DNA of 17,649 bases. It comes from a virus. Location: positions 1 through 17,649 of the IMG/VR virus record IMGVR_UViG_3300045988_168222; one strand, written 5' to 3'. Positions 1 through 16,126 of the stretch are shown in pieces (the stretch's first letter is position 1; the number at the start of each line of letters is the position of its first letter). Below the pieces are notes generated by a model. That model worked only from the letters and a program-made list of their open reading frames with translations. It was not told the DNA's origin and did not search any database. A program made the translations under genes and the position numbers.

Positions 1-149
1 TAATTCAATATTGGTATAACGTTTTTTTTTTTTCGCCTCACCCCCCCTCCTTAGCACTTCTCTCACTTGAGTGCCAAGCACACCAAATAAAATGTAACCA
101 CTTTCTGAAAACATTTTCAACTTGACTTATTACAACTAATATGTATCAC
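1..149. repeat. Left inverted terminal repeat (perfect part); imperfect homology with the right end continues to about nt 290
   Basis: nt 1-149 are the exact reverse complement of nt 17501-17649. The repeat contains T12 and C7 homopolymer runs at 22-33 and 41-47. Homology at about 90% identity continues through the promoter, RBS and ATGAAT of the first ORF. Confidence 0.9.
106..119. promoter_or_regulatory. Palindromic operator-like site TGAAAA-CA-TTTTCA, immediately 5' of a TTGACT hexamer (122-127)
   Basis: 6-bp inverted arms TGAAAA/TTTTCA with a 2-bp spacer. The same 14-mer recurs at 205-218, 17432-17445 and 17531-17544. Confidence 0.5.
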
Positions 150-151
150 TA

Positions 152-169
152 ATGAAAACAAGCTTTCAT
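152..169. promoter_or_regulatory. Second palindrome ATGAAA-acaagc-TTTCAT (same half-site, 6-bp spacer)
   Basis: Perfect 6-bp inverted arms. It is conserved in the right ITR at 17481-17498. Confidence 0.4.
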
Positions 170-204
170 AGCACAAATAAATAAATATGAATGTAAGTGT
201 TTTC

Positions 205-218
205 TGAAAACATTTTCA
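205..218. promoter_or_regulatory. Operator-like palindrome TGAAAACATTTTCA abutting the -35 of the left early promoter
   Basis: Same 14-mer as 106-119. It lies 3 bp upstream of TTGACT at 221-226. Confidence 0.5.
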
Positions 219-220
219 TG

Positions 221-249
221 TTGACTATGTTCCATACTCTTGCTATAAT
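221..249 (+). promoter_or_regulatory. Left early promoter, consensus sigma-A type: TTGACT-17 bp-TATAAT
   Basis: TTGACT at 221-226, a 17-bp spacer, then TATAAT at 244-249. It lies about 40 nt upstream of the first ORF at 288. Confidence 0.75.
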
Positions 250-287
250 ATAAATGTAAATAATAAATAAAGAAAGTTGGTAACAAC

Positions 288-521
288 ATGAATTATTACA
301 ATATTGAATTATTAGACACTAAAGACCATGTATTTTTTAGTACTGTTTCATTAGCACCCAACATTACAGATGCAATGGAAAAAGCAAAGTTAAAAGCATA
401 CAATCAAATTGATAAACACAAAATTGTTATCCGTTATGTAACGGTTAAAGATAATGAACAAGAATTTACATACAGTATGCTTACAAAAAGATTATACAAG
501 TTGTATAAGGAGAAAAAATAA
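288..521 (+). CDS. Hypothetical early protein (77 aa)
   Basis: First ORF downstream of the left promoter. Its leader and ATGAAT start are shared with the right-end first ORF. Its stop overlaps the next start (TAATG). Confidence 0.5.
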   Translation: MNYYNIELLDTKDHVFFSTVSLAPNITDAMEKAKLKAYNQIDKHKIVIRYVTVKDNEQEFTYSMLTKRLYKLYKEKK

Positions 522-727
522 TGTCAGACAAAGAAATACTTAAAACAATCCAAAACGATATTAAAAATATTGACAAATGTATTGATATGTGTGATAATTA
601 TGAAGCAGTTGACTACCTCATATCTATTCAAAAAAATCTTAGAGAACAAGAAATTAAAATAGTAAAACAAATGGCTATTAAAAAATCCCTAAAGGAAAAC
701 AAAAATGAACAAACAAAAATTAATTAA
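521..727 (+). CDS. Hypothetical early protein (68 aa)
   Basis: Good RBS (AAGGAGAAAAAATAATG). It is translationally coupled to the upstream ORF. Confidence 0.55.
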   Translation: MSDKEILKTIQNDIKNIDKCIDMCDNYEAVDYLISIQKNLREQEIKIVKQMAIKKSLKENKNEQTKIN

Positions 728-1040
728 TGAAATTGAAAAAGTTAAATTTAAAATACCTAATAATGAATACAAACAAGGTTATAATAATGGTCTTAATAGT
801 GCTATTCTTTGTGTATATGATATGAAAGAACCAATAATTAACAACACAAACACTCCACAACACTATCAAGGAACTATTCAACCTATTGACCTAATCAACG
901 CACAAGACTTAAATTTTAATCTTGGTAACGTTGTCAAATATGTTTGCCGTGCTGGAAAAAAACAAGGTGAAAACATTCTTTCAGACCTTGAAAAAGCAAA
1001 AGATTACATCAACTTTGAAATTGAAAGAGTAAAACAATGA
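705..1040 (+). CDS. Conserved small phage early protein resembling the DUF3310 family, with motifs HY..G.IQPIDLI and GNVVKYVCRAGKK...DLEKAKDYI
   Basis: RBS AAAGGAAAA precedes the start. The motif pattern HY..IEPID / KY..R.G.K / DL.KA..Y is recalled as typical of DUF3310 phage proteins. This rests on memory, not a search. Confidence 0.5.
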   Translation: MNKQKLINEIEKVKFKIPNNEYKQGYNNGLNSAILCVYDMKEPIINNTNTPQHYQGTIQPIDLINAQDLNFNLGNVVKYVCRAGKKQGENILSDLEKAKDYINFEIERVKQ

Positions 1041-1564
1041 ACAAACGCCAACGCAAAAAATTAGCTAAAAAGCAAGCTATTAAAACAGGTGCTTACACTC
1101 CTCGTAACACCTTCCGCTCTACTATGTCAATTAAAACAACACTATTTGACCCGAACCACCCAAAAAATGAAAAAATGATATATCTAGCTGAAAGAAATTT
1201 GAATAGGCTCGCATTCGTTATTACTAAGCCTAATATTGTTAACCTAACAAACCTAACTGAAGACGATGTTAAATATATTCAATCCCCAAAATTTACTCAA
1301 ACAATATCTAATATTCAAGAATACTTTAATTATGACCGTGCTAGATATAGAGACCCTGAGCGGGTTGACAACATTACACGTCACGTCATGACTAAATACT
1401 TTTATCAACGTGATATCGAAAGCACAAGGGCGCTTGATATTGCTATCAAACGACTAACAAAACAACTTGAAAAGATAACTAATAAATACTCAAAAGGTAA
1501 AGATAGACGAGCAACTAACAATCCTTTTGTTATTGTTTACTATAACGACTTGGAGCTAAGATAA
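1037..1564 (+). CDS. Basic 175-aa early protein. Function unknown. Candidate DNA-binding or terminal-protein-like factor.
   Basis: Lys/Arg-rich N-terminus (MNKRQRKKLAKKQAIK). The ATGA overlap with the upstream ORF gives coupling. It is the largest early ORF of unassigned function. Confidence 0.5.
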   Translation: MNKRQRKKLAKKQAIKTGAYTPRNTFRSTMSIKTTLFDPNHPKNEKMIYLAERNLNRLAFVITKPNIVNLTNLTEDDVKYIQSPKFTQTISNIQEYFNYDRARYRDPERVDNITRHVMTKYFYQRDIESTRALDIAIKRLTKQLEKITNKYSKGKDRRATNNPFVIVYYNDLELR

Positions 1565-1716
1565 TGAAATACCTAATAACATATCACACAAAACTAGACA
1601 ACGGCTACATTGATGAACGTCAAATCATTTTAAAAAATAAATATAATGCTAAAAACGTTTATAATAAAATAGCAACCGAAAAACGTACATTAAACATCGA
1701 ACTGGAGGAACTATGA
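1564..1716 (+). CDS. Hypothetical small early protein (50 aa; not in the supplied ORF track)
   Basis: Its ATG overlaps the upstream TAA (TAATG). A GGAG sits 9 nt upstream. Its stop overlaps the next ATG (ATGA at 1713). It fills an otherwise non-coding gap in a tightly packed coupled operon. Confidence 0.4.
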   Translation: MKYLITYHTKLDNGYIDERQIILKNKYNAKNVYNKIATEKRTLNIELEEL

Positions 1717-1898
1717 TTACATTTTATAAACTTACAAGCGTGCTTACTGGTGAAGATTACTATTTTAAACCTGAAACCATTGACTATTATAAGTATACAG
1801 ATACAAGCGTAATGATTATTGCTAAAAATATGCGACTTGAAGTATCAAAATCAGACTTTACAAACATGCTTATTCTAGAAGGGATTGACGAATATTGA
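1713..1898 (+). CDS. Hypothetical early protein (61 aa)
   Basis: RBS GGAGGAA lies 5 nt upstream, with ATGA coupling. Confidence 0.5.
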   Translation: MITFYKLTSVLTGEDYYFKPETIDYYKYTDTSVMIIAKNMRLEVSKSDFTNMLILEGIDEY

Positions 1899-2173
1899 CA
1901 ACAACTAACACAACTTACCGTGTATCAATCAATTACAAAGATAAAATTATCTTACTATCAAAACCTTTAGAAACTTGTGACTATTTTAAAGATAAAACGT
2001 CATTCATTGACGGTACTTATACTATTTTTAATAGACTCGTTGAAATTCACAAAGACCCTACCCAATACCGTGAAAGCCACTACATAAAAAGCTATAAAAT
2101 GGCTAAAATACTATATAACAATTTTAAAAAAACTAAAAAAGATTATTTTTTTTACAACACAATTGAAAATTAG
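1895..2173 (+). CDS. Hypothetical early protein (92 aa), probable TTG start
   Basis: The ORF begins with TTG overlapping the upstream TGA (TTGA). GAAGGGA lies about 10 nt upstream. There is no in-frame ATG nearby. Confidence 0.4.
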   Translation: MTTTNTTYRVSINYKDKIILLSKPLETCDYFKDKTSFIDGTYTIFNRLVEIHKDPTQYRESHYIKSYKMAKILYNNFKKTKKDYFFYNTIEN

Positions 2174-2174
2174 C

Positions 2175-2203
2175 TTGACTTTTAACAAAAACTATTATAT
2201 AAT
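2175..2203 (+). promoter_or_regulatory. Consensus promoter TTGACT-17-TATAAT driving the SSB-like gene
   Basis: TTGACT at 2175-2180, a 17-bp spacer, TATAAT at 2198-2203. The RBS GAAAGGAG follows, and the ATG is at 2233. Confidence 0.7.
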
Positions 2204-2232
2204 TAATTCATAAAACGAAAGGAGCCAAACAC

Positions 2233-2547
2233 ATGGCATTACAATTTAACACAATCGGTTTTATCAACTTTAACAAAGAGTATAATAAAGTACTCAAATC
2301 AGGTGCGATCACAGTATCATTTACATCATCACAAAAAAATAAAGATGGTGAATATGATAAACAATACTTCAATGGTCTAATCCCTGCTAAGCTAGCACAA
2401 CACGTGAAACCATTCTTAAACAAAGAGCTTGTTAAAATTTCTGGCATTGCTTATCCTGCTCAAAAAGGATACATCAACTTTACAATTTTGGAAGTGGAGC
2501 AATATAAAAAAGAAACAAAAACAGATGAAATTAATTTACCATTTTAA
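2233..2547 (+). CDS. Putative single-stranded DNA-binding protein (OB-fold-like, 104 aa)
   Basis: It has its own consensus promoter and a strong terminator, which suggests high expression. It sits immediately upstream of the packaging ATPase and polymerase, as the SSB does in 44AHJD/P68-type genomes. The sequence has SSB-like beta-strand patterning. The assignment is by position and pattern only. Confidence 0.4.
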   Translation: MALQFNTIGFINFNKEYNKVLKSGAITVSFTSSQKNKDGEYDKQYFNGLIPAKLAQHVKPFLNKELVKISGIAYPAQKGYINFTILEVEQYKKETKTDEINLPF

Positions 2548-2559
2548 TAATTAAATGTT

Positions 2560-2585
2560 GGTAGGGAGCACACCCTACCTTTTTA
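2560..2585 (+). terminator. Rho-independent terminator: GGTAGGG-agcaca-CCCTACC followed by TTTTT
   Basis: A perfect 7-bp GC-rich stem followed by a T-run, directly after the SSB-like gene. Readthrough is probably needed for the downstream ATPase and polymerase, because no promoter is seen in 2586-2603. Confidence 0.7.
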
Positions 2586-2603
2586 AATTAGAAAGGAAAC
2601 ACA

Positions 2604-3851
2604 ATGGCAAAAAAGAAAACTTTACCAAAAATACTTAAACAAAAGGCAGTCTCTCTTTTTGCAACTGAAAAAGAAGAATATGCTTACTATTTAAAAGAAT
2701 ATAAAGAAAAATACTTACCCGAAGAATTTAACCAACTTGAATTATTAGACGAGCTTTGTAACGATGACCTTGACCATTACATGAGTATCACGTCTCGTGG
2801 TGACGGTAAATCATTTAACTATATTTCTGCTGTTGGTTATCTTTGCTATCAACTTAATATGGGGTGTACTCTCTTAGTACGTCATTTTACTTTACAAGAT
2901 AAAATGCGTGAACTTGTGGAGGATATTCTACAAACCATTGGCTGGTGCAATTTCTCTACTGACTATCATTATAGGTCTACCTCGGATTATTTAATTATTT
3001 CAATCGGTGACAAAGATGTCTTTTTAATTACTGATATCAATAACGCAAGTGACTTAAAACAGTCTTCAGCAGTACTTAAAAACTTTCCAATTATGTTATA
3101 TGATGAATTTCTAACTCTTCCAGACGATTACTGTAAAAACGAATATGAAAAGATTAGAACTATCTATAAATCAATCGACCGTATTAAGAACCGCCCTTAT
3201 ATCAAAACCCCTAAAATGATATATCTTGCTAACCCAGTAAACTTTGATAGCCCGCTACTTCCATCACTTAAAATCTATAATAAATTACAAACACAAGAAA
3301 TTAATACAATCAAGCAATATGATAACGTCTTATTAGAGTTAAGGCGTAACGACTCACGTAACGATGGAAAAAACTTGCGTGCCTTTCCTGATAATGATGA
3401 TGCGGACGTTACTGGTGAATTTCAATTTTCTAATCATAAGTTAGTGAATGAAGACGTGTATTATAACATTTACAATCACGCAAAATCGGTAAAAGTTAAA
3501 TTAGACAATAAATTAATGTTGCATATCGTTGCAAAAAATGATAATATAGTATTATCAGTTGAGCGAAGTGACAACGATGAACAGTATTGTATCAATTTAC
3601 ATGATGAAACTGAAAAAAGTCAATATTTAAATGACAAATACTATAAACAAAGTTTTATTAAAAAACATGAAAAAGGTATGTTTCTTTACAAGGATAGCTT
3701 TTCTAAAACATACATGGAACGGGATACAATGCTTATGCAATTAAATTTGTTTAAGCTTATACCATCAGCAAAACAAGTCACAACTGAAGAAACATACATT
3801 AAAATTAAGGAAAATAATTTCCTTAAAGCTCTAGCAAAAAAATATGAATAA
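2604..3851 (+). CDS. DNA encapsidation (packaging) ATPase, phi29 gp16-like
   Basis: Walker A ITSRGDGKSF (compare phi29 gp16 GARGIGKS) and Walker B IMLYDEF (compare IVFDEF). RBS GAAAGGAAA precedes the start. It is adjacent to the polymerase, as in C1/44AHJD-type phages. Confidence 0.8.
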   Translation: MAKKKTLPKILKQKAVSLFATEKEEYAYYLKEYKEKYLPEEFNQLELLDELCNDDLDHYMSITSRGDGKSFNYISAVGYLCYQLNMGCTLLVRHFTLQDKMRELVEDILQTIGWCNFSTDYHYRSTSDYLIISIGDKDVFLITDINNASDLKQSSAVLKNFPIMLYDEFLTLPDDYCKNEYEKIRTIYKSIDRIKNRPYIKTPKMIYLANPVNFDSPLLPSLKIYNKLQTQEINTIKQYDNVLLELRRNDSRNDGKNLRAFPDNDDADVTGEFQFSNHKLVNEDVYYNIYNHAKSVKVKLDNKLMLHIVAKNDNIVLSVERSDNDEQYCINLHDETEKSQYLNDKYYKQSFIKKHEKGMFLYKDSFSKTYMERDTMLMQLNLFKLIPSAKQVTTEETYIKIKENNFLKALAKKYE

Positions 3852-3869
3852 TAAAGGGGTCTTAATATC

Positions 3870-6188
3870 ATGCACAATCAAAACGAATTACTTGACTTTT
3901 TAAAAAAGTTTAAAGGTAAAAAAGTCTCGTTATACGCTGATATTGAGACTTTTACTTGCAACAAAATAGAGGGTATGGAACACCCAACAAAATATCACTC
4001 TTTTACGTATTCACTAGCTATTGCTTATTTTAATGATAATGACTTTCCAAAAGTAGCTGTTTTTAATAATTTTTATGATTTCTTTGAAAAAGTTAAAGAA
4101 AGAAAAATCAGAAAATCATTATCTTTTGATTTTGTGTTTCACAATGGTGAAAAATTTGACAACCATTTTTTTATTGAAGAGATGCAAAGTTATTATAATT
4201 TACCAGTCTACACTGAACACAATAAAAGCGCAAACAACACAGCAAATAAAAATGCTAGAAAAATGTCAACTATTGACACCGAAGAGAAAAAACATGGTCT
4301 AGTGTTAGAAAGCAGAGTGAAGTCATCAAATAACGTTAGTGTCAAAGCTTACGTTCATGGTAGACGTGTTGAATTTATTGACTCATTTAAGAAAATGAAT
4401 ACAAGTATAGCTGTTTTAGGTAAAATGCTACTTAATAACAATTTGATAAATGAAGAGTATTTAAAGACTGATTTCGATTATACTTGCTTTGATAAAGATG
4501 AAGATATTGATAGGGAAACAGTTAAAACACATATCAAACGTTGTTTTGAAAGTTTGAATGAAAAACAACTTATCTACATTCGTAATGACGTCATTATTTT
4601 GGCTTTAGGGGTAAAACACTATAAAACGTTATTTTATGGTTTTGACTTTTCAAAAATGACCTTTACTCAAAATATCAAAGAAGAATATTCGAATTATAAT
4701 AAACTTGCTGAATTTCAGTTATTAAAAACAGATGGTCGCTTTTCTCACTTAAAATTAAATGATTACCAAATTTGTGGCATGTCAGGTTTTGACTATTTCC
4801 GTTCATTCTACAAAGGCGGGTTAAATCTTTATAATGATAATTACATAGGTAAAATAATAAATAAAAACGGGTTTTCAATTGACTTAAATAGCTCTTACCC
4901 TACTGTCATGTATAAGGAGAAATTACCCACTTATTTAATAGCCCTAAACGAAAAAAGATCAATTGCAAATTATGATTATAATAACAATGATATCATGTCA
5001 TTTTTCACAATGACAATAGAAAATGCTAATAAGTATATACTTTCTAAAATAGAAAGTAAAGTTTTAAGGAACGCTATTGTAAAATACTATAATTCAAAAG
5101 ATGGGCTTGTATACTATAATACCGTACTATTAAGACTACTATCTAAAATCACTAAACATGATTTCAATTCTATCCCAGTTGAAAGCTCAGCAACTTTTAA
5201 GTGTGAATATTTTGGAGCGCGTGACGTGATAGCTCGTAACTACTTTATTAAAACGCAAGGGAAAATGAAAAATAAGCTAAATTGTGAGATTGATAACATT
5301 GACCCCCTTAACATTGAAATGACTGACGAGCCTAAACCATCTAAGTATAATTTCTCAGACGAAATGGTTCAAGGATCTAAAGTGCTTTTAAATGGTATTT
5401 ATGGGGTTCCTGCTTTACGTATTCATTTTGATATTTTCAAACGTATTGGCGATGACTTTGAAAATGTAAAAAATGGTTTTACTAACAAAGAAAGAAATAT
5501 CGTTTTCTCTGCTGGTGTAACTGCTTTTGCTTTTCATAACCTATTATCACCTCTTCAATACCTAACACCCCAAGAAATTGATAACTATTTTTGGTATGCT
5601 GATACCGATAGCTTATACATGGATAAACGTGCTCTTGATAAATTTCCAAAATACATGTTCCATAAAATGAACCTAGGGGGGTGGGATATTGAACATGAAA
5701 ATATTACAAAATTTTATGCGTTTAATCATAAAAAATATTGTTTATTTGATAACGGTATTGTTGTGCGTTGCGGTGGTGTTTCAAAATCTCTTATTAAAGA
5801 ATGGATAAAACATTCACATGATGACTTTGATTTTTTTGTAAAATGTTATTTTTCAGATGGTACCATCGTACCTGCGACACGTTCCATTAGAAACGAATAT
5901 AACACGATTTCAATTTATAACACTTGTGCCAAACTTGAAAAGGGATACCCCTACTTTGATAGATATATATTGCAAAATGAAAAAGAACTTGATAAAATAA
6001 AATCAAGAATAAGGGAAGAAATTGCTAACCAGTCATCAAATGAACTTTTATACGTTGAAACACCGTATGGCGCTATTGGAACAAACGACGTTATTCCAAA
6101 TCAGGAAATTCCAGAAAATAATAACATTCGTGAACTAATCGAAGAATATAACAAATTTAAAAGACATAACCAAAAGGACTTATTCTAA
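3870..6188 (+). CDS. Protein-primed family B DNA polymerase (772 aa)
   Basis: Exo I YADIETFT, Exo II FHNGEKFDNHFF, Exo III YIRNDVIIL, motif A DLNSSYP, motif B KVLLNGIYG, motif C YADTDSLY and the KKY motif. Long TPR-like insertions are present. RBS AAAGGGG precedes the start. Confidence 0.95.
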   Translation: MHNQNELLDFLKKFKGKKVSLYADIETFTCNKIEGMEHPTKYHSFTYSLAIAYFNDNDFPKVAVFNNFYDFFEKVKERKIRKSLSFDFVFHNGEKFDNHFFIEEMQSYYNLPVYTEHNKSANNTANKNARKMSTIDTEEKKHGLVLESRVKSSNNVSVKAYVHGRRVEFIDSFKKMNTSIAVLGKMLLNNNLINEEYLKTDFDYTCFDKDEDIDRETVKTHIKRCFESLNEKQLIYIRNDVIILALGVKHYKTLFYGFDFSKMTFTQNIKEEYSNYNKLAEFQLLKTDGRFSHLKLNDYQICGMSGFDYFRSFYKGGLNLYNDNYIGKIINKNGFSIDLNSSYPTVMYKEKLPTYLIALNEKRSIANYDYNNNDIMSFFTMTIENANKYILSKIESKVLRNAIVKYYNSKDGLVYYNTVLLRLLSKITKHDFNSIPVESSATFKCEYFGARDVIARNYFIKTQGKMKNKLNCEIDNIDPLNIEMTDEPKPSKYNFSDEMVQGSKVLLNGIYGVPALRIHFDIFKRIGDDFENVKNGFTNKERNIVFSAGVTAFAFHNLLSPLQYLTPQEIDNYFWYADTDSLYMDKRALDKFPKYMFHKMNLGGWDIEHENITKFYAFNHKKYCLFDNGIVVRCGGVSKSLIKEWIKHSHDDFDFFVKCYFSDGTIVPATRSIRNEYNTISIYNTCAKLEKGYPYFDRYILQNEKELDKIKSRIREEIANQSSNELLYVETPYGAIGTNDVIPNQEIPENNNIRELIEEYNKFKRHNQKDLF

Positions 6189-6206
6189 GAACAAGTCCTT
6201 TTTCTC
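6174..6206. terminator. Bidirectional hairpin terminator shared by the convergent polymerase and HNH genes
   Basis: Stem AAGGACT (6174-6180) pairs with AGTCCTT (6194-6200). TTTTCTCG follows on the plus strand and an A-rich stretch precedes it, giving a T-tract on the minus strand. The stems lie inside the last codons of both ORFs. Confidence 0.6.
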
Positions 6207-6536
6207 GTATAATAAATTTGTTGTAAAGTCACACCATTCCAAATTATACCAGGCGTTATTAGTCTTGTCATGGTCTAAGTGGTGAACCGTATTATAATTG
6301 TTAGGGTTAGGTATATACGTTTCTGCCACTAATCTATAGACGTAAACTGTTTTAACATATCCGTTATTACATAGATTAACCCTTTCACGGCCACCCTTAT
6401 CTTTTCTAGCTTTTAAAATTTTACCAGTTTTCTTATTTTTAACAAGTCCACCGTTTTGGATAAGATAATTAGTAAAGTATGGGTGTTCTTTCCATTCAAT
6501 AAATACAGCTTTCAAAACGCTTGACATCTTTCTCAC
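6180..6536 (-). CDS. HNH homing-type endonuclease (NUMOD4 + HNH)
   Basis: NUMOD4-like IEWKEHPYFTNYLIQNGGLVKNKKTGKILK and the HNH motif VHHLDHDKTNNAWYNLEWCDFTTN. No SD sequence precedes either candidate ATG. The ORF overlaps the PlyCB-like ORF by 41 nt and the polymerase 3' end by 9 nt. Confidence 0.85.
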   Translation of the reverse strand: MRKMSSVLKAVFIEWKEHPYFTNYLIQNGGLVKNKKTGKILKARKDKGGRERVNLCNNGYVKTVYVYRLVAETYIPNPNNYNTVHHLDHDKTNNAWYNLEWCDFTTNLLYEKKDLFLE

Positions 6537-6708
6537 TGATATTTAATTCAGGTAACCCAAACTTGTCTTTCAAAGCTAAAACCGTTTTAATGTCTGCAAT
6601 GTCTAGACGTTTACCATTTAAACACGCACGATATCCGTAATTAGTATCAAAATAAAGGCAATCGTAAGGATAGCTCTTATCTTCCATATTAAAATTAATA
6701 TCACTCAT
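6496..6708 (-). CDS. plyCB: PlyCB-like cell-wall-binding lysin subunit (70 aa)
   Basis: It aligns with recalled C1 PlyCB (72 aa): MS.IN.N.E, conserved YGYRA (the Tyr-Arg binding-groove residues) and NISe.DV. RBS AAGGAGAAG precedes the start. The start overlaps the holin stop (ATGAGTGA). Confidence 0.7.
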   Translation of the reverse strand: MSDINFNMEDKSYPYDCLYFDTNYGYRACLNGKRLDIADIKTVLALKDKFGLPELNISEKDVKRFESCIY

Positions 6709-7093
6709 CTTGTTTCTTCTCCTTAATCATTTTTAAAATTTCAGGGTCTACAGTCTTAACTGTTTCTTCCTTAACTGTTTCTTTTGTTTCAACCTGGTCA
6801 TTATCTAGCATGTTCTTAATCTTGTCAGGTACTGGTATGAATGCGCTAGCATTTTCAAGAATTGAAACAATTTCCATGATTAAATAGTAACCAACAATGT
6901 AAGAAGTCAAATCGGTTCCAAGATAAGCGCTTAAAATAATGGAAACAACAACAACACACCAGATTGAAACTTTTGCCAATGCGCCATGTTTCATTTTTTT
7001 ACTTGACACGTTCTTTTGGTCGTAAGCTTTAATAAAACCCGTAACGATATCCAAAATGTTACACGCCACTAGATACTGCATAAATGTAGTCAT
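6701..7093 (-). CDS. Holin, LL-H / phage_holin_4_1 family (130 aa, two transmembrane segments)
   Basis: N-terminal family signature NILDIVTGFIKA...VSSKKM.HG. Hydrophobic segments ALAKVSIWCVVVVSIILSAYLG and YIVGYYLIMEIVSIL. Charged C-terminal tail. RBS AGAAAGGAGG precedes the start. Confidence 0.8.
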   Translation of the reverse strand: MTTFMQYLVACNILDIVTGFIKAYDQKNVSSKKMKHGALAKVSIWCVVVVSIILSAYLGTDLTSYIVGYYLIMEIVSILENASAFIPVPDKIKNMLDNDQVETKETVKEETVKTVDPEILKMIKEKKQDE

Positions 7094-7107
7094 AAGTATA
7101 GTCCTCC

Positions 7108-7135
7108 TTTCTCATAATATTATACCATAAAAAAC
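7108..7135 (-). promoter_or_regulatory. Extended -10 promoter (TGGTATAAT) for the holin-plyCB-HNH cassette
   Basis: Minus-strand TGgTATAAT with the -10 at 7119-7124, about 20 nt upstream of the holin RBS. There is no good -35; the upstream region is T-rich. Confidence 0.5.
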
Positions 7136-7140
7136 TAAAA

Positions 7141-7166
7141 TATAAAAGACGTGTATAACACGTCTA
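7141..7166 (-). terminator. Rho-independent terminator after the PlyCA-like gene
   Basis: Minus-strand hairpin AGACGTGT-tat-ACACGTCT (plus 7147-7165), followed by CTTTTATATTTTAG on the minus strand. Confidence 0.6.
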
Positions 7167-7171
7167 TATTT

Positions 7172-8719
7172 TTAGTCCCACCAAACAACACCACTAATAG
7201 CATTCAGGAAAGCATCTCTAGGATATGTAATTCTAGCAACGTGTCTATTTGGGATAGGTGAATTAGCTAGATAAGCATTTTGTTCAATTGTTGTTACTGT
7301 TGTATCTGTGAAACTTTCAATAACACCAGTATGACCCCATGAGATTGTTTGAAGATAGGCTGTACCTCCACCGTCAATAGTCCCGCTTGGTCCTCTGTAA
7401 TTACTTGCTACGTTAAAAATCATACCTTTTTTCAAATCACTGGCAGGCATTGCTACACCTGTATAATCTTTAGTATGTGCCCCTGCCTCACCCCAATTAT
7501 AGGCATTATGGAGTTGTGATGCATACATGGTTCCTGCACCTGATAACATTTTAAATCTGTCACTATAACATGATGCACATGTGTATCCGCTCATCAATCC
7601 AGCAAAGTAACCAGACAAGGCAAAACATTGACTTTCAGCATTACCACTAGCAAAGTCCGCCCCTGGTGTACCGCTACCAATAAAGCCAGCAATGTCAGAT
7701 AGAGCTTTTGTAATTCGGTCTGATGCTGGTTTGTTTTGGTGATCTACATCTGACTGAGATGGTGAAGATCCACCCGAACCTGTCTGACCTGATGGTTTGA
7801 CGGTGTCTTTTAAGATAGATGTAATAGCGTCCTCAAGGATTTTTTTAACCTCGTCAAGTGCCTCATCAGATAAACGAACACGCCATAAATTCATATTTTT
7901 TGTTAATTTAACAACTTTATTAAACATATATTGCTCAGATGCTGTATATACATTTTGATTAAACATGTCTTTTAACGTGTCAAACATTTTATTCAAAGCT
8001 TCCAGCATTGCTTTTCGTTTTGCTGAATTATCAACTTTGTCCTCTTTTGGTTTTGTTGGGTTTTGTGGTGATGCTACACCATCGTTTCCACCACCTCCTG
8101 AAAACGGGTCAACTCCAGCATCTTTAATGGTTTTAATCATTAAATCATAAGGATTGCCAAAATATACTGCTGGAGCGCTCGATCCTTGGTGTTGTAAACA
8201 CCAATCCTCAGCAAACACCCAAGCATTTCCCGCCATAGTAGACGGCATCATTATAGATCCTATTGTTCCCTTACCAGCATTATTATAAGCGTTTTGACAA
8301 TCATTGATATTTTCCTGAGGAGGTGTGCCTCTTACTTCAGGGGCTGTCATCGCTACTGGATAACCGTTATATCCGTTGTCAATTTTACGACAATATTCAA
8401 GGTCTGAAATTAAACACTCCATACCTGTTGACCCCTGGTCAGTGGCATAGTGGTTGATCCAGTTACCAGCACCACCACCCTCAGTTACAGTGTAAAATAG
8501 GAAAAAAGCAGCCTCTCCCTGATATTCTTTAATTTTAGGGATATAAGTGCTAAGTAGATTTTGTTTATTTACACCATATGAATTGATAACAGGTCTTGCA
8601 CCAGGTTGACCCATGAACCAATCGGCAAGTGCCTCATCACTCAATCCAAAATTGTTTGAAGTTTTGTTTTTGAAAAAATTAATATATTGTTCAGTTGAAT
8701 AAGTTTTATATGATGGCAT
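7172..8719 (-). CDS. plyCA: PlyCA-like endolysin catalytic subunit: N-terminal glycosidase-like domain, helical linker and C-terminal CHAP domain (515 aa)
   Basis: The C-terminus has the CHAP signature (QCFALSGYFAG..., His in WGHTGVIES). The N-terminal 200 aa, including FGLSDEALADWFMGQPGARPVINSYGVN and TEGGGAGNWINHY, resemble the recalled PlyCA GyH domain. RBS GAAAGGAAATAAAATG precedes the start. Confidence 0.8.
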   Translation of the reverse strand: MPSYKTYSTEQYINFFKNKTSNNFGLSDEALADWFMGQPGARPVINSYGVNKQNLLSTYIPKIKEYQGEAAFFLFYTVTEGGGAGNWINHYATDQGSTGMECLISDLEYCRKIDNGYNGYPVAMTAPEVRGTPPQENINDCQNAYNNAGKGTIGSIMMPSTMAGNAWVFAEDWCLQHQGSSAPAVYFGNPYDLMIKTIKDAGVDPFSGGGGNDGVASPQNPTKPKEDKVDNSAKRKAMLEALNKMFDTLKDMFNQNVYTASEQYMFNKVVKLTKNMNLWRVRLSDEALDEVKKILEDAITSILKDTVKPSGQTGSGGSSPSQSDVDHQNKPASDRITKALSDIAGFIGSGTPGADFASGNAESQCFALSGYFAGLMSGYTCASCYSDRFKMLSGAGTMYASQLHNAYNWGEAGAHTKDYTGVAMPASDLKKGMIFNVASNYRGPSGTIDGGGTAYLQTISWGHTGVIESFTDTTVTTIEQNAYLANSPIPNRHVARITYPRDAFLNAISGVVWWD

Positions 8720-8731
8720 TTTATTTCCTTT

Positions 8732-10483
8732 CTATGCAATAACATTATTATCAGCCATATCACTACGTTTTGATAAGTCATTATAATTGTGCCACAATCT
8801 TACACCACCCTCAAAAAGTGTTTTAAGCTGGTCAAATAATTCTCGGTCAATGTCATTTATCCAGTAGTTACCCTTAAATTGTACCCAATTGGCTTTACTC
8901 ATTGAATTCACGTTATAAATTTGATTGTCGTGTGGCATTGCTTCATGACCAAAAGCACCATAATATCTGCGAAGACTGTTTAATTCTTCATAATTAATCG
9001 TTGAAACTTTCAACCAAATACCATAGTCGCCTGTTTTATCCAGTACGCTGTTAGTATAACCACCCTCACTAACTGTTGGTGGTGAGATCTTCCACTGATT
9101 CATCTGTGCCTTTTGATTGCGATAATATTCATATTCATCAGCAAACAAACCTGCTCCTTTGGCTGGTGCGCTAGCAAGTCCACCACTAAACACGTTTGAA
9201 TAAACAGAAACAGCGTTGAATAGTCTATCTTTAACAGAATTATTAGGGTTAGTCATCTCTTGAATACGTCCTGAAATTGTTTTAGAATTTTCAAGTTGAC
9301 GAGAATAAGCAGTGTTAGCTTTGTTTAAAATATAGTTATTAATCATCACGGGAACATTATCGAATGTTGTGATGCTCATTTGATTATCACGATAAAATCC
9401 GTGATTTGATTCATTTGTTTCACGTTGTCCGTATTCCAATGAATAAATGTCAATTTCATTGAAAGCACCTAAGACTGATGATGCGTATATCGTGTTACCG
9501 TCTTTGATTTTACCTGTTTCAAAGTTTAATTGATTACCACGATAGTCAGTTAGATAAATATTAATAACTTGATCACGTACCAAATAATCTTCAAAATCTT
9601 TTAATCCTAAAACCTCTTTGATTTTTGATTTTGTTAAATTAAAAGGCATTGTTAAGATATTTGAATTATTGCCACCGTCCAAAACATATAATTTTGTTCC
9701 TTTACAGTCTTGTGTGTTTAATCCTGATAAATTAAAGAACATTTTAGGAACCTTTACAATTGTTTTGAAATTTTGTGTTATCCAGGGATATGCTGATAAC
9801 GTTCTAAGCAAGCTATCAAGATCAGCACTTGATACTAGATATAGGTTAACAGCTGATGTTATTCCGTCATATGTTCCGCCTGTTGCCGTTTGCATTTTGG
9901 GCTTATCTTCAGTCCCGAATTCGCCATCTAATTCAACAGCGCTTTGAATGATATACATAAAATCATTAAATTGTACACCGTCTTTATTATTGTTTGAAAA
10001 TTGTGAGGGGTTAATAAACATCATTGTTGAAGTTGGTAAAATGTCGTTACATGTTCTCAGGTATTCCTCACGTCCTCTTAATCGTTGCAACGGTAAATGC
10101 TGTCTGATAACCTCAACATTTTGAAGATTTTCCAATACACTTCCTTGGGTGTAAGTCATAACAACATCAATAACCAAGTCAAGTTGTGTTGTTTTATCAT
10201 TCATATAAGTCGTTTTAACAATAAAAGCATAGTATGCTTTTCCGTCCCAACCATCAATAAAACGGCAATAATTAAAACCTTGTAAGCTTTCCATTTCCAT
10301 AGGAACGTTAACAGTTCCACGGTCATAACGATAATTGAAACGATTAGGAAATTCAATGGTGTTATTTCCAGTAAAATAACTATCAAACCATTTATCACGC
10401 TCACTATTTGAATTAAAATGCAAAGTATTTTGCATATCGGTGAAATTAGTGTTTTTATATAACGAAAATTGTGATAATTTCAT
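8732..10483 (-). CDS. Tail structural protein (583 aa), possibly a phi29 gp9-like tail knob or major tail protein
   Basis: Assigned by size and position only: between the fiber genes and the lysin, as in 44AHJD/P68. It has its own extended -10 promoter, and the RBS GAAAGGAGAG precedes the start. Confidence 0.4.
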   Translation of the reverse strand: MKLSQFSLYKNTNFTDMQNTLHFNSNSERDKWFDSYFTGNNTIEFPNRFNYRYDRGTVNVPMEMESLQGFNYCRFIDGWDGKAYYAFIVKTTYMNDKTTQLDLVIDVVMTYTQGSVLENLQNVEVIRQHLPLQRLRGREEYLRTCNDILPTSTMMFINPSQFSNNNKDGVQFNDFMYIIQSAVELDGEFGTEDKPKMQTATGGTYDGITSAVNLYLVSSADLDSLLRTLSAYPWITQNFKTIVKVPKMFFNLSGLNTQDCKGTKLYVLDGGNNSNILTMPFNLTKSKIKEVLGLKDFEDYLVRDQVINIYLTDYRGNQLNFETGKIKDGNTIYASSVLGAFNEIDIYSLEYGQRETNESNHGFYRDNQMSITTFDNVPVMINNYILNKANTAYSRQLENSKTISGRIQEMTNPNNSVKDRLFNAVSVYSNVFSGGLASAPAKGAGLFADEYEYYRNQKAQMNQWKISPPTVSEGGYTNSVLDKTGDYGIWLKVSTINYEELNSLRRYYGAFGHEAMPHDNQIYNVNSMSKANWVQFKGNYWINDIDRELFDQLKTLFEGGVRLWHNYNDLSKRSDMADNNVIA

Positions 10484-10497
10484 ATGCTCTCCTTTCT

Positions 10498-10533
10498 ATA
10501 GTATATTATAACACAAAAACACCCGTATTTAAA
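10498..10533 (-). promoter_or_regulatory. Promoter TTTAAA-17-TGtTATAAT, partly inside the upstream terminator
   Basis: Minus-strand -10 TATAAT (plus 10505-10510) preceded by TGT. The -35-like TTTAAA (10528-10533) lies in the loop of the 10511-10541 hairpin. Confidence 0.5.
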
Positions 10534-10541
10534 CGGGTGTT
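10511..10541 (-). terminator. Rho-independent terminator after the fiber gene
   Basis: Minus-strand hairpin AACACCCGT-ttaaat-ACGGGTGTT followed by TTTTGTGT. Confidence 0.65.
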
Positions 10542-10546
10542 ATTAT

Positions 10547-11626
10547 TTAGATGATGTCACTAAAAGTGATAACATAGTTTTGTGTTGTGTTATTTGTTGT
10601 TGATACTGTCAAAGTATACCCTGATAATGTGAATACACAACCGCTAATGCGTACCGTGTTATTATCACCGTAAGCATTCATAATGTTTGTGAATTTAGTA
10701 GTGTCCTGTGTGTTAAGTGTGAAGTTAACAGAAGGTACACCTTTTAAAATTTTAACAATGAAGTTAAATTCATCTTCAGATGTTGAAACACTTGTATTTG
10801 CTGACACACTTTTAACATGTGTTTTGAGTAAGCCAAAACCTGGAACACTATACTTTTGATTTAGCGTGTAAAGTTGACGTAAACCATTACCAGACACACC
10901 TATTGAAGTGTTGTTAGTGATTGTGTTTTGTTTTTGACTAAGTAAGGTATCGATAGCAGACTTATCAGAAACTTGCTCAATCCATTGACTCCAAATAGTA
11001 CCGTTATAATAACGCTTGTATTTCTTATAAACATTATTGTCAATTGTTGTTGCCTCTTGAAATGCTCCTGATGCATCTTTAAATGAATGAACAAAATACC
11101 AATAATCACTTGGTGCGTTCACCGCCTTCCAAGTTTTAACATTTCCATTTTCTAAATTGTTTAAGTCAAATCCGTCTGGCACTCTAGTGTATTCAATACC
11201 TAATTTTGTTGTATTTCCTGAAGTTGTTTTACTAATACCATAATTGGTTAGTAAGTTATCATGTTCCAAAACTTTTTGAGGGTTTGTGTCTACTTTTGTT
11301 GTTGCACTTGTTCCGTTTGCACCTTTTTGGAGTGTTACTGTGTTTCGTGTACTTTCAAGCGACTGCTCTTTTTGAGTATCATGTTTAGGGTGAATAGTTA
11401 CAGTGTTAGTTGTTTCGTCTTTAGTTACTGTAATTAAGTCACTATTATCTGATACAACTGTTTTTAAGTTATCAGTTAAATTATAATAACTTTCAACTTT
11501 TCCTTTTTTCGTGTGAACATATGTATTTTGACCGTCTGAAATTAAATCGTTAACGTTAGTTAGTGACTTATCAAAGCTTTCAATGTCATCAACACCTGTC
11601 ACACCACGTACAAATTTTTTTGCCAT
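10547..11626 (-). CDS. Putative tail fiber / receptor-binding protein (359 aa)
   Basis: Ser/Thr/Asn-rich and beta-rich, with a conserved-looking N-terminal anchor (MAKKFVRGVTGVDDIE). It is the last structural gene before a terminator. RBS GAAAGGAAAAAAAATATTATG precedes the start. Confidence 0.4.
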   Translation of the reverse strand: MAKKFVRGVTGVDDIESFDKSLTNVNDLISDGQNTYVHTKKGKVESYYNLTDNLKTVVSDNSDLITVTKDETTNTVTIHPKHDTQKEQSLESTRNTVTLQKGANGTSATTKVDTNPQKVLEHDNLLTNYGISKTTSGNTTKLGIEYTRVPDGFDLNNLENGNVKTWKAVNAPSDYWYFVHSFKDASGAFQEATTIDNNVYKKYKRYYNGTIWSQWIEQVSDKSAIDTLLSQKQNTITNNTSIGVSGNGLRQLYTLNQKYSVPGFGLLKTHVKSVSANTSVSTSEDEFNFIVKILKGVPSVNFTLNTQDTTKFTNIMNAYGDNNTVRISGCVFTLSGYTLTVSTTNNTTQNYVITFSDII

Positions 11627-11663
11627 AATATTTTTTTTCCTTTCTGTGTTTATTATATCATAA

Positions 11664-11795
11664 TTATTGTGATTCTGGAATATTCAAAGGGTGGTTTAAA
11701 TTTCCATTATTAAATTCATCAGAAAAATATAATTTACCCTCGTGTTCAATGATTGTAATACCGTTGTTTTCTTGTTTTACTTCTTCAAGTGTCAT
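11664..11795 (-). CDS. Hypothetical small protein (43 aa; not in the supplied ORF track)
   Basis: Strong RBS AAGAAAGGAGCTTATATG. It fills the gap between the 429-aa and 359-aa tail genes. The product is hydrophilic. Confidence 0.4.
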   Translation of the reverse strand: MTLEEVKQENNGITIIEHEGKLYFSDEFNNGNLNHPLNIPESQ

Positions 11796-11813
11796 ATAAG
11801 CTCCTTTCTTATG

Positions 11814-13103
11814 CTATGCGATTGTTTGTACAGGGTCACAATTTGCTAAGTCTTCAGGGTCTCCGTTTGCTTTGTATTTAGGTAAATACTCTTTACCGTT
11901 GTCATCAAGCCAAGTGATAACTGTGTAAACCTCTTCAGTGACTGGTTTAACAATGTCGCCAGGTGTTGGAATTGATTTCAAACTTTTAGACCAAACAGAA
12001 AACACTCCATCAGTACCATAATCCAAACGTAATACCCAAGGATACATTAGATGGTTTGTAGGGTCGTGAAAATAATTTTGATAGTATCGGAAAGCGTATC
12101 TATTAATCTGTGCTCTAAGATTGTTTGAAATTTTTCCGCCATAATTTCCTTGAATTTCAGTTTTTGTGAAGTCCCCCAACTTAGACCAGTCAGCAGGATT
12201 AATGGTTGCACCGTTTGTTGTAAGCCCACTAAAGTCAAAACCAATACGTTCAATACGTGTAATACGTCCATTTATTCGTTGTGTAAATGAATTGTATAGA
12301 CAATCAAATCGGTCTTTACCGTTAACAATGTTTGTTGTTTTTACATTGGTGTGGCTGTAACCAGTAGTTGAAACAGCCCCAACAAGTGTGCTTGCCATTG
12401 TAGCAATATTTTTCACGTTTAGTGTTTCTGCTTCCAGAACCTTTACTTTTTGATTCCATGTATCAATTTCAGCTGAAATACCATCAATAGCATCTAAACG
12501 TTTTTGGATATTTGCAATGATAAGCATCAAACCTGAGTCAGCTTGTTCATAGTCTTTGCGGTTAGCTTCAATAATCTTGCGTAATTCTTCAAGCTGTTCT
12601 TTAGTAGCCCAGCCACCCCCGTCAAGTAAGTCAACACGAGTCTTTAAAGAGTTAAAGTCATTTAAGTGACTGTTGAATGAATTTTGTAACGTTTTAAAGT
12701 TTGTTTCAAGAGCAGTGACACGGTTTTTTAAGTCATCAATGTTTGCTGTTTCAACGAATAAGCCGTCCGAGTTAGCAACTAACTTGTTACCAGTAGCTTT
12801 TGAAATTTTAACGTTAGCTTTCAAAACAATGTCATTTACACCCTCAACCAGCCACGATGTTTTTTTGATTAATTCAATTGTTTGCGTGTCTTCAGTGTTA
12901 ACGTCTCTCTTTGCTAATTCGTTTACAAAATCAACAATAGACTTAATAAGTTCATTAAAATTTGATAGATAATCGTAATATGATGGTGCGTTAGTATTGT
13001 AGTCACGTCTATCATCATACCACGGTTGCCAGTGACCCTCAAGTGATAATGGTAGGTGAGGTGCGTTATATGGTTTATTTTCATCAAAGTTAATATTTTC
13101 CAT
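11814..13103 (-). CDS. Tail appendage / fiber protein with a central coiled-coil (429 aa)
   Basis: A long heptad-like region (LKNRVTALETNFKTLQNSFNSHLNDFNSLKTRVDLL...) followed by a Gly/Thr-rich C-terminal domain. RBS AAGAAAGGAAAACAATG precedes the start. Confidence 0.4.
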   Translation of the reverse strand: MENINFDENKPYNAPHLPLSLEGHWQPWYDDRRDYNTNAPSYYDYLSNFNELIKSIVDFVNELAKRDVNTEDTQTIELIKKTSWLVEGVNDIVLKANVKISKATGNKLVANSDGLFVETANIDDLKNRVTALETNFKTLQNSFNSHLNDFNSLKTRVDLLDGGGWATKEQLEELRKIIEANRKDYEQADSGLMLIIANIQKRLDAIDGISAEIDTWNQKVKVLEAETLNVKNIATMASTLVGAVSTTGYSHTNVKTTNIVNGKDRFDCLYNSFTQRINGRITRIERIGFDFSGLTTNGATINPADWSKLGDFTKTEIQGNYGGKISNNLRAQINRYAFRYYQNYFHDPTNHLMYPWVLRLDYGTDGVFSVWSKSLKSIPTPGDIVKPVTEEVYTVITWLDDNGKEYLPKYKANGDPEDLANCDPVQTIA

Positions 13104-13120
13104 TTGTTTTCCTTTCTTAA

Positions 13121-13780
13121 TTATAAAATTTGTGAGAATAAAATTTTATCTAAGTCGTTAAATAGGTCATTATGAAACGTATATAGTTCTCTCATTCGCC
13201 CAACTTCATAAGTTTCTTGTTTGCTAAAATCGATACTATCAACGTCTGATGTATTAGTTGCCCTAGATTTTGAATGCGCTGTAGTGTCTGCGTAGTCATA
13301 GGTTTCTTTGTCCAGTGATAAATCAGTATTATCTTGTGGTAAGGTAACCGCTAGATTATTATCACGGGTTACCGTTGAACCTGTTGAAGTTGATGCTGAA
13401 TTACCATAAGTATATACTTTATTATTTAAGTATTTCTTACCATTGATATAATAATCATTTATAACGTCTTTAATCCCACGAATAAAGCTAGCTAAGCGCC
13501 AGTTAAATGTTTCATATGTTTGAAATTTAATAGTACGTGTTAAGAATTTGGCTAAAAATTCACTTTCAAATTCATCTCGGACTTGCTCGTCTAAAAAATC
13601 AAGACCATAGAAAATTGTATTTCTGCAAACTGATTTTACTTCATTATCATACTGTAACACTTTGTGCGTGAATTGTAGTTCAGGATTATAGTATATAATT
13701 TCATTACCCCTTAAGAAGTCGCTATAAACATTATTATAGGTTGTGTAAATAACATCGTATAAACGTGTCGTTGTCTTCAT
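13121..13780 (-). CDS. Putative lower collar / tail tube protein (219 aa)
   Basis: Assigned by position directly downstream of the connector gene, with TAATG coupling, as the lower collar is in phi29-like and 44AHJD-like genomes. Confidence 0.35.
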   Translation of the reverse strand: MKTTTRLYDVIYTTYNNVYSDFLRGNEIIYYNPELQFTHKVLQYDNEVKSVCRNTIFYGLDFLDEQVRDEFESEFLAKFLTRTIKFQTYETFNWRLASFIRGIKDVINDYYINGKKYLNNKVYTYGNSASTSTGSTVTRDNNLAVTLPQDNTDLSLDKETYDYADTTAHSKSRATNTSDVDSIDFSKQETYEVGRMRELYTFHNDLFNDLDKILFSQIL

Positions 13781-14742
13781 TAAATACCCCCGTCTAAAAT
13801 TTGTACTTTTTCAAGGCTTGAAAGTTCGCTAGCTATTTCATCTCTAAAGCTTGCTTTTAATTCTGTTTTGAATTTATCATTGTAATGTTTTAGCTTTTCA
13901 TTTCTAGCTTGTAAATAAATACCAGCGTTAGCTTTTTGGTATGCTTTGTTGCTTTCAGCCTCGGACTGTGAAACACCGCTTTCTTTGTCAACGGCTAGGG
14001 AAGTAAGACCCAAAATGTTATTAAGTTCAGCAATATTATTTTGGTATTCTCGTTTTAGCTCAGGTAAAGCACTGATGATACCTTGACCCTCGTTGATGCT
14101 TAAAATGCTTTCATCAGGGTCAAAGAATTTTGTTGTTTTAATATATGGAGCGCCATTATATAAATCTTGTGTGATTTGCTCTACGTCCTCATCATTTGAC
14201 TCCCCTCTGATAACAGTAGAGATTTTAGCTTGCATATAAATGCTAAATCTTGACATGGCAATCTCTGCAATACGTTCGCTATATGTTTCAATAATATTGA
14301 AGTCGTTAGTTAGTTGGATTGGTTTGTTCCATAATACAATAAAATTACCTGTTTCATAGCCGTCATGGTAAGTGATTTCTTTATAAAATTTTTCTTTAAT
14401 TTTATTTGATATAAAGAAATTAATATCGTTACCTGTAAGTGGTCTTGTGCCATAAGTTTGAATATTTGATAGGGTGTTAGATTGGTTTACTGTTCCTAAA
14501 ATCATTGTACCCTTTTTAGTTTGTCCAATTGCAACACCGTAACCCTGTCTAAGCCATACTTCAAGTTGAATTGGGTCAATCAAAACATTTTTATCGTTTA
14601 AACCCTCGTATGAAATTACCGATGGTAGAAATTCGATATAACGATTTTTAAAGAATTTGAAAAAGTTATTTCTTTGTGAGATAACTCTCATTTTGACTTT
14701 TTCGGATAAGGTTTGCTCGATATTTGAATAAAAGTGACTCAT
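13780..14742 (-). CDS. Putative head-tail connector (portal / upper collar), phi29 gp10-like (320 aa)
   Basis: Size and position match (phi29 gp10 is 309 aa, immediately after the capsid gene). The C-terminal part is acidic. RBS AAGAAAGGAG precedes the start. Confidence 0.5.
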   Translation of the reverse strand: MSHFYSNIEQTLSEKVKMRVISQRNNFFKFFKNRYIEFLPSVISYEGLNDKNVLIDPIQLEVWLRQGYGVAIGQTKKGTMILGTVNQSNTLSNIQTYGTRPLTGNDINFFISNKIKEKFYKEITYHDGYETGNFIVLWNKPIQLTNDFNIIETYSERIAEIAMSRFSIYMQAKISTVIRGESNDEDVEQITQDLYNGAPYIKTTKFFDPDESILSINEGQGIISALPELKREYQNNIAELNNILGLTSLAVDKESGVSQSEAESNKAYQKANAGIYLQARNEKLKHYNDKFKTELKASFRDEIASELSSLEKVQILDGGI

Positions 14743-14754
14743 GTTACTCCTTTC

Positions 14755-14787
14755 TTAAATAAAATAAAAGCATGGGCGAACCCATGC
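14755..14787 (-). terminator. Rho-independent terminator after the major capsid gene
   Basis: Minus-strand hairpin GCATGGG-ttcg-CCCATGC followed by TTTTATTTTATTT. No promoter follows, so the connector gene is reached by readthrough. Confidence 0.7.
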
Positions 14788-14794
14788 ATTTTGG

Positions 14795-16104: not shown

Positions 16105-16126
16105 TTTTATTTTTCCTTTCTTTATT

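Follow-up and report, generated by a model that had tools for sequence, protein, structure and literature searches.

A conserved 29-bp symmetric site, very probably an operator, beside the early promoters of C1-like streptococcal phages

The C1-like streptococcal phages are the source of the PlyC lysin, and to our knowledge nothing is known about the timing of gene expression in them. The closest described parallels come from phi29, in which the protein p4 holds RNA polymerase at the A2c promoter from an upstream inverted repeat, through contact and not through occlusion. Repression by p4 at A2c and its upstream site are named in the titles of papers cited in PMC11476376 and PMC11806353; the phi29 protein p6 binds the terminal region of the genome and silences the early promoter C2 near the genome end (PMC4974454); and in phi29 and Nf a conserved host regulator, Spo0A, acts at phage early promoters and near genome ends, in one case by blocking the contact between RNA polymerase's alpha-subunit C-terminal domain (alpha-CTD) and an upstream promoter (UP) element (PMC2731898). 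Here we analyse IMG/VR virus record IMGVR_UViG_3300045988_168222, positions 1 to 17,649 (the whole stretch, hereafter the window), which is the complete linear 17,649-bp genome of a C1-like streptococcal phage with inverted terminal repeats (ITRs) at both ends. Next to the early promoter in each ITR lies a 29-bp two-fold symmetric site that is conserved as far as phage C1 and is very probably, judging from its pattern of conservation, a protein-binding operator controlling early gene expression.

The left ITR (1 to 293) spans a promoter, a ribosome-binding site (RBS), and the opening codons of the first gene, and is 97% identical to the right ITR (17357 to 17649), also 293 nt long; genes run inward from both genome ends. 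In GenBank the nearest relatives are the Streptococcus equinus phages vB_SbRt-pBovineS21 (S21) and pBovineB21, which share about 82% nucleotide identity with the window in the central part. The DNA polymerase of the window has 53% identity with that of Streptococcus phage C1 and 41% with those of staphylococcal Rountreeviridae. An earlier note on this sequence had drawn attention to a 14-bp palindrome, TGAAAA-CA-TTTTCA, and the exact 14-mer TGAAAACATTTTCA does lie at 106-119 and 205-218, with mirrors at 17432-17445 and 17531-17544 and no further exact copy in the genome; a looser form, TGAAANNNNTTTCA, occurs four times against 0.12 expected. The 14-mer is the centre and right arm of a longer site, a putative operator of 29 bp at 191-219 (ATGTAAGTGTTTTC-T-GAAAACATTTTCAT, centred on base 205), with a mirror copy in the right ITR at 17431-17459. 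Ten mismatches separate the two ITRs, all of them outside the elements described here, and those at 189 and 190 flank the left edge of the 29-mer.

Related ends were gathered by routes independent of the 29-mer: similarity over the whole genome gave S21, polymerase similarity gave six IMG/VR contigs, a -10/RBS pattern gave one metagenome contig, and terminal-sequence patterns and homologues of the first-gene protein gave others. The ITR alignment comprises 10 ends, none collected through the 29-mer, and the analysis of symmetry draws on about a dozen related phages, C1 among them, which supply 11 distinct versions of the site; several of the related ends come from one metagenome and are close kin. 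The records of SG005 and pBovineB21 lack terminal repeats and were uninformative. Two of the search patterns drew chance matches: the metagenome scan for the -10 and RBS with a variable gap was too loose and returned mostly chance matches, with OCPK01001114 the one true relative among the matches listed, and a 22-base pattern made of the 14-mer plus TTGACT also matched an unrelated terminase gene by chance.

In the 10-end alignment, the best conserved block of the ITR is exactly 191-219, with the invariant positions ATG.AA.TG.TTTC.GAAAACA.TT.CAT, and both the flanks and the spacer between -35 and -10 are variable; information content is about 2.0 bits in the 29-mer against 0.2-1.0. Across the 11 distinct versions the block reads ATGnAAnTGyTTTCnGAAAaCAnTTnCAT (or ATGnAAnTGyTTTC-n-GAAAaCAnTTnCAT), in which 22 positions are essentially invariant. 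This 22-position consensus was found in every recovered related end, with a single mismatch in the ERZ28646296 end, and relatives fetched through an unrelated protein carry it too. Phage C1 has the element at 42-70 and 16618-16646, inside its 143-bp terminal repeats, and the Staphylococcus phage Andhra lacks it, its best match having 6 mismatches. A scan of 2.9 million viral contigs and 185,579 genomes (one per species) with the 22-position pattern matched only C1-like phage sequences, the sole "genome" match being a phage fragment binned into a metagenome-assembled genome (MAG). The earlier note had proposed looking for the 14-mer in other C1-like genomes: the larger site is indeed kept as far as C1, but three of the arm pairs of the 14-mer are broken in some relatives, and at its position S21, U159203, and the MAG fragment carry TGAAAACATTTACA.

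The symmetry of the site argues for a protein as its reader. Within the window, 12 of the 14 arm pairs about base 205 are complementary, and palindromes of such length and quality number four in the genome against 0.69 expected, two of those four being the terminators at 6173-6201 and 10515-10544. In the wider set of sequences with flanks included, 85% of the 14 mirror pairs about base 205 are complementary and the conservation profile correlates with its own mirror image at r = 0.81; about 211.5, the axis of the 14-mer, complementarity falls to 45% and the mirror correlation to 0.05. Ten of the 14 pairs about base 205 never vary across the 11 versions, and the variable pairs (4/26, 7/23, and 10/20) are mirror-placed and mostly non-complementary, with covariation below the shuffle mean and no compensatory double changes among them. 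Conserved and variable positions thus mirror one another across relatives without compensatory change, as is typical of an operator, and because conservation is mirror-imaged without covariation, the likely reader is a symmetric protein acting on double-stranded DNA and not a hairpin. Half-site matches (with at most 1 mismatch) and the core TTTCWGAAA are confined to the ITRs within this genome.

The site is locked to a strong promoter. Starting 1 bp beyond the left copy, the left early promoter (221-249, plus strand) consists of a -35 hexamer TTGACT at 221-226, a 17-bp spacer, an extended TG at 241-242, and a -10 hexamer TATAAT at 244-249, ahead of the rightward early operon with its first ATG at 288; its mirror at 17401-17429 on the minus strand serves the leftward early operon, which has its first ATG at 17362. 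TTGACT-17-TGcTATAAT is the best promoter match in the genome (11 of 12 positions, with TG) and conforms to sigma-70/sigma-A promoters, whose hexamers resemble TTGACA and TATAAT and stand 16-18 bp apart. A TTGACT follows each of the 14-mers (122-127 and 221-226), as had been noted, each 14-mer ending 2 bp before it, so the palindromes abut the -35 boxes and do not overlap them as had been proposed. In 17 related ends the 29-mer precedes a -35 and a TATAAT separated by 17 bp, usually with the TG extension. Ten of these ends have 1 bp between 29-mer and -35, six (C1 among them) have 11 bp, and one has 13 bp, a step of about one helical turn. The 11-bp class has a weaker -35 (TTGCAT or TTGTAT). 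Distance to the genome end is far less constrained: 42 bp in C1, about 85 bp in short ITRs, and 191-220 bp in long ITRs.

We think it probable, on this comparative evidence, that the 29-bp site is bound by a symmetric, sequence-specific DNA-binding protein acting on both early operons. The earlier note had suggested a dimeric regulator for both operons, and that part of its proposal stands well, in that both ITRs carry a two-fold symmetric, conserved, promoter-linked site; the axis and extent that it gave to the site were wrong. A dimer or a pair of dimers would probably bind the 29-mer, and with one copy directly upstream of a strong sigma-A-type early promoter in each ITR, a single protein could govern both inward operons. 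With its centre near -51 or -61 (assuming a start about 7 nt after the -10), such a protein could contact RNA polymerase, or block the upstream contacts of the polymerase, from one face of the helix. The likeliest outcome would be that both near-consensus promoters are shut off or damped once the early phase is over, which is the simplest role because promoters so close to consensus must fire unaided on entry. Activation may be the effect instead, especially where the -35 is weaker (TTGCAT or TTGTAT), as in the 11-bp class.

This arrangement is most like that of p4 at A2c in phi29: both belong to small protein-primed podophages and have, upstream of the core of a strong early sigma-A promoter, an inverted-repeat site about 30 bp long. 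The p4 half-site differs in sequence, however, p4 sites lie in the central A2c-A3 region and not in terminal repeats, and Pfam and PHROGs searches found no p4-family homologue among the early open reading frames. The silencing of C2 by p6 is alike in that a phage protein binding the terminal region turns off an early promoter near the genome end (PMC4974454), but p6 reads bendability with a 24-bp period and coats DNA, whereas the 29-mer is discrete, symmetric, and locked to a promoter.

Several points weigh against this interpretation, or leave its direction undecided. Where the 29-mer ends 11 bp short of the -35, simple occlusion of the core promoter is not possible; repression and activation are both compatible with the sequence data; the transcription starts are assumed positions; and several of the ends are closely related sequences from one metagenome. 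Other points concern the protein itself. Searches of Pfam and PHROGs revealed no helix-turn-helix or similar DNA-binding domain in the small early proteins, and sequence searches of the PDB with the same proteins gave no matches. The first early gene (288-521, plus strand) encodes a 77-aa protein with about 30 metagenomic homologues, whose predicted model (pLDDT 90, with the order beta-beta-alpha-beta-beta-beta) is unlike any known DNA-binding fold and has no significant match among solved structures, the best being AcrIF9 at a TM score of 0.56 and E = 1.3; comparison of profiles found no relation between the 77-aa family and the small paralogues at the ends of C1. Although the operator is constant, the first gene varies from one end to the other and among lineages, and the 77-aa gene can be at either genome end in relatives. 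The only small early proteins in common with C1 are a DUF3310 protein, a 175-aa terminal-protein-like protein, and a 104-aa protein resembling single-stranded DNA-binding protein (SSB), so no conserved phage regulator is evident.

Two of these three shared proteins have likely functions elsewhere, although neither is annotated as SSB or terminal protein. The basic 175-aa protein (1037-1564, plus strand; N-terminus MNKRQRKKLAKK) had been put forward as a candidate binder for the palindromes, but it is more like a terminal protein, and we take it as one because its gene lies upstream of those for the packaging ATPase and the polymerase, in the same early operon (adjacent in C1, a few small genes apart in the window), and because it is weakly similar to C1 orf5; this role is likely on gene order and similarity. 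The 104-aa protein (2233-2547, plus strand), 50% identical to C1 orf4, is likely an SSB, given that its end, ...DEINLPF, has what we take to be a resemblance to the acidic tip of SSB proteins.

Under the preferred reading of a symmetric protein at the 29-mer, the binder could come from the phage, as an early protein, or from the host, as a conserved streptococcal protein, and we divide the probability roughly evenly between the two. A variant in which another conserved host protein binds, so that host physiology sets the control, is possible, and we hold it tentatively. A conserved host protein would fit an operator whose 22 positions stay fixed as the phage proteins diverge, the small early proteins being not recognisably conserved, and phi29 uses host Spo0A likewise (PMC2731898), although Spo0A boxes are 7-bp TGTCGAA repeats and not a 29-bp palindrome, and streptococci are without Spo0A. 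Against a host protein, the 22-position pattern has no exact match in the 185,579 bacterial and archaeal genomes save for the one phage fragment.

The same ITR does hold a second element that resembles a host site. At 51-77 (mirror 17573-17599) lies a CIRCE-like element, TTAGCACTT-N9-GAGTGCCAA, which agrees at 16 of 18 positions, and in its 9-bp spacer, with the operator of HrcA, of which the consensus is TTAGCACTC-N9-GAGTGCTAA (PMC3192767). No such match arose in 200 shuffles even with 3 mismatches allowed. The element is kept in S21, U159203, U153648, and OCPK, with drift in the right arm, whereas neither C1 nor the other ITR type has it. Unlike a usual CIRCE, it lies upstream of all promoters, about 45 bp before the first -35-like hexamer, and not between promoter and gene. 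Exact CIRCE sites occur in more than 120 IMG/VR contigs, and most of the 22 near locus ends look like ordinary promoter-to-gene sites. An unrelated 13,045-bp record, IMGVR_UViG_3300006568_000176, carries exact CIRCE sites at 19-45 and 13001-13027, one within each terminal repeat; the repeats start with AAAGTTACC, in the manner of phi29 termini. Terminal repeats with a CIRCE site may therefore be a recurrent feature among small protein-primed phages, and the exact element in both repeats of that genome hints at a wider theme of host regulators. One could picture C1-like ITRs as docking platforms for host regulators, with HrcA at the CIRCE-like site and CodY or another conserved protein at the 29-mer, an idea whose nearest parallel is phi29 with Spo0A and which we regard as rather doubtful. 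If true, a strictly lytic phage would gate early transcription, and perhaps replication from the ends, on host stress and nutritional state.

Among host proteins, CodY is one candidate for the 29-mer. The central 15 bp of the 29-mer (TGTTTTCTGAAAACA) could be a CodY box, which would tie early transcription to the supply of branched-chain amino acids. Both are palindromes with an identical core, in that the central 11 bp, TTTTCWGAAAA, agree exactly (11 of 15 overall) with the 15-bp consensus AATTTTCWGAAAATT (PMC10415144, PMC9096947); the varying centre is mostly A or T, as W requires, and TTTCWGAAA occurs in the genome solely at the four ITR sites. CodY is also highly conserved in Firmicutes, and would explain an invariant site in diverged phages. 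Yet the four outer positions of the box are invariant in the phages as TG...CA where the consensus has AA...TT, and one of these is T15, whose mutation in a construct with overlapping sites strongly reduced CodY binding (PMC10415144). The centre of the 29-mer is 4 mismatches from the consensus and is not recovered at 3 or fewer; motifs at the usual 9-bp offset match at only 7 of 15 positions as counted on the sequence, leaving no second motif with the usual 6-nt overlap; one relative has C at the centre; and the invariant outer ATG.AA and TT.CAT, 7 more conserved bp on each side, would be left unexplained. We consider a CodY box unlikely.

None of the GlnR, Rex, ARG-box, parS, BirA, PlcR, and WalR motifs is known to us to fit in both sequence and spacing, and we know of no streptococcal operator that fits the full 29-mer.

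Another function suggested by the position of the 29-mer, inside the ITR of a protein-primed genome, is that of a replication-origin element, either a p6-like nucleation site or a recognition site for terminal protein or polymerase, and the earlier note had likewise entertained a role for its palindromes in origin recognition. In phi29, p6 nucleates 46-125 bp from the ends and represses the end-proximal C2, but it reads bendability and not a sequence of 22 positions (PMC4974454). The 29-mer also ranges from 42 to 220 bp from the terminus while keeping its distance to the -35 fixed at 1 or 11 bp, and after a duplication in the lineage of the window (described below) the promoter-proximal copy has stayed intact and the end-proximal copy has decayed. 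Because of the fixed -35 gap, the range of end distances, the intact promoter-proximal copy, the avoidance of the elements by differences between the ITRs, and the confinement of half-sites and core to the ITRs, we read the site as a promoter-linked operator, and an origin element appears quite improbable.

Little more can be said for a model with no dedicated protein, in which the 29-mer would be an A/T-rich UP element or bent DNA aiding RNA polymerase. In the 1-bp-gap class it does span about -65 to -37, the zone of UP elements, and it has A4 and T4 tracts; however, invariant G/C positions and strict two-fold symmetry are atypical of such elements, the UP consensus, which is oriented and belongs at -59 to -38 on the promoter strand, is found (at 3 or fewer mismatches) on the opposite strand only and occurs 161 times genome-wide against 188 expected, and six phages have the site another 10 bp upstream. 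We rate this model as improbable.

A further alternative, drawn from the earlier note, takes the 14-bp TGAAAA-CA-TTTTCA as the unit, on which a dimer would sit with its centre at 211.5; each ITR would have three equivalent sites. The exact 14-mers have perfect 6-bp arms and occur in ITRs only, but just 2 of the 6 arm pairs are invariant, and mismatches disrupt pair 15/28 in 4 of the 11 sequences, pair 17/26 in 3, and pair 20/23 in 5, with invariant left-arm bases opposite variable right-arm bases; the invariant bases 191-204 would also be left unexplained. With the axis at base 205 and not at 211.5, a 14-bp unit is very unlikely. A cre site, whose consensus for CcpA/LacI-type proteins is TGWAANCGNTNWCA with a central CG, was considered and rejected: the 14-mer matches it at 13 of 14 positions, but the centre is invariant CA and not CG, and the axis of the 14-mer is itself unsupported. 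Least probable is a hairpin, of DNA or RNA, as the working form of the palindrome (for example a cruciform, a displaced-strand structure, or a terminator), a view that the 12 complementary arm pairs in the window favour but that the mostly non-complementary and uncompensated variable pairs, the covariation beneath the shuffle mean, the lack of a T-run after the palindrome, its place upstream of the promoter (and so outside any transcript in short-form ITRs), and the failure of an Rfam search to find any RNA family oppose.

Returning to the operator itself, the ITR of the window carries a second, degenerate copy upstream at 92-120 (ATGTAACCACTTTCTGAAAACATTTTCAA, with its mirror at 17530-17558), which includes the 14-mer at 106-119. 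Both 14-mers lie in a 37-nt direct repeat (91-127 and 190-226, 84% identical), and the long ITR of this lineage arose when a unit of about 99 bp was duplicated. The promoter-proximal copy keeps 22 of the 22 consensus positions and the end-proximal copy 19, with three mismatches at positions that are otherwise invariant; the latter drifts further in contig U153648 and is absent from short-form ITRs. The two 14-mers had been given equal rank, which this drift contradicts, and the upstream copy looks like a decaying duplicate or a weak auxiliary site. The TTGACT that follows it (122-127, plus strand) is kept as TTGAC(T/A) in all long-form ITRs with no conserved -10 downstream, which bears out the observation that it has no matching -10, and it may be the remnant of a promoter or a weak second one.

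A third palindrome, ATGAAA-acaagc-TTTCAT (ATGAAAacaagcTTTCAT), is located at 152-169, as had been described, with a mirror at 17481-17498. This 18-bp palindrome, ATGAAAAC-AA-GCTTTCAT, has in common with the 29-mer an outer heptamer, ATGWAAR, and long-form ITRs keep it as CAATGAAAAYnnGCTTTCAY even though their flanking sequences have ceased to align; it may be a further candidate site for the protein of the 29-mer, given the shared half-site. The heptamer occurs 5 times in each ITR of the window against about 0.4 expected, and, with A, G, or C allowed at position 7, 59 times in eleven related non-coding ends against 5.3 expected, an enrichment of about tenfold. Its copies mostly form inverted pairs, with spacers of 15 bp or 3-4 bp or in the overlapping form TTTCATGAAA. 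The proposal that several sites in each ITR share a TGAAA(A)-type half-site is therefore borne out in part, as the related ATGWAAR recurs in the third palindrome but 92-120 is not equal to 191-219. In the ERZ27259864 contig, two tandem copies of a different palindrome, TTTGTCAAGTAAAAATACTTGACA, lie at 120-170 upstream of its 29-mer, and different lineages may have added other operator-like sites.

Nearer the terminus, positions 21-50 (mirror 17600-17629) contain T13 CGCCTCACCCCCCCTCC, a T-run followed by a C-rich tract. This layout is common to all the related ends, to C1, and to the staphylococcal phage Andhra, and is probably an origin feature of the family. At 1-55 and in its last 55 bases, the RefSeq record of Andhra (NC_047813.1) opens and closes with Illumina adapter sequence (GTGACTGGAGTTCAGACGTGTGCTCTTCCGATCT), outside the true terminal repeat. 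The record of S21 (ON759210.1) continues for about 190 bases past its right terminal repeat (17093-17280) with no counterpart at the left end, and these extra bases are probably an assembly artefact. Away from the ITRs, a second consensus promoter, TTGACT-17-TATAAT, lies on the minus strand at 16757-16729, at the junction of the right early genes and the structural genes, with its -35 within a terminator-like hairpin (16764-16744) and no 29-mer nearby; the region 16729-16764 may act as a switch point where a terminator is coupled to a late promoter.

As a kind, operators beside the early promoters of phages are already known. There appears to be no earlier description of this particular 29-mer, of how far it extends, of its retention from C1 through rumen and gut phages, or of its helical phasing; repeats, promoters, and palindromes all go unmentioned in the paper on the closest isolates. 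As a precisely delimited and deeply conserved element, the 29-mer is usable as bait for the regulator and as a handle on early shut-off, and together with its promoter it forms a compact, portable module for genetic tools in Gram-positive bacteria. If the protein that binds it is a host protein, a lytic streptococcal phage would be linked through its early promoters to the physiology of its host.

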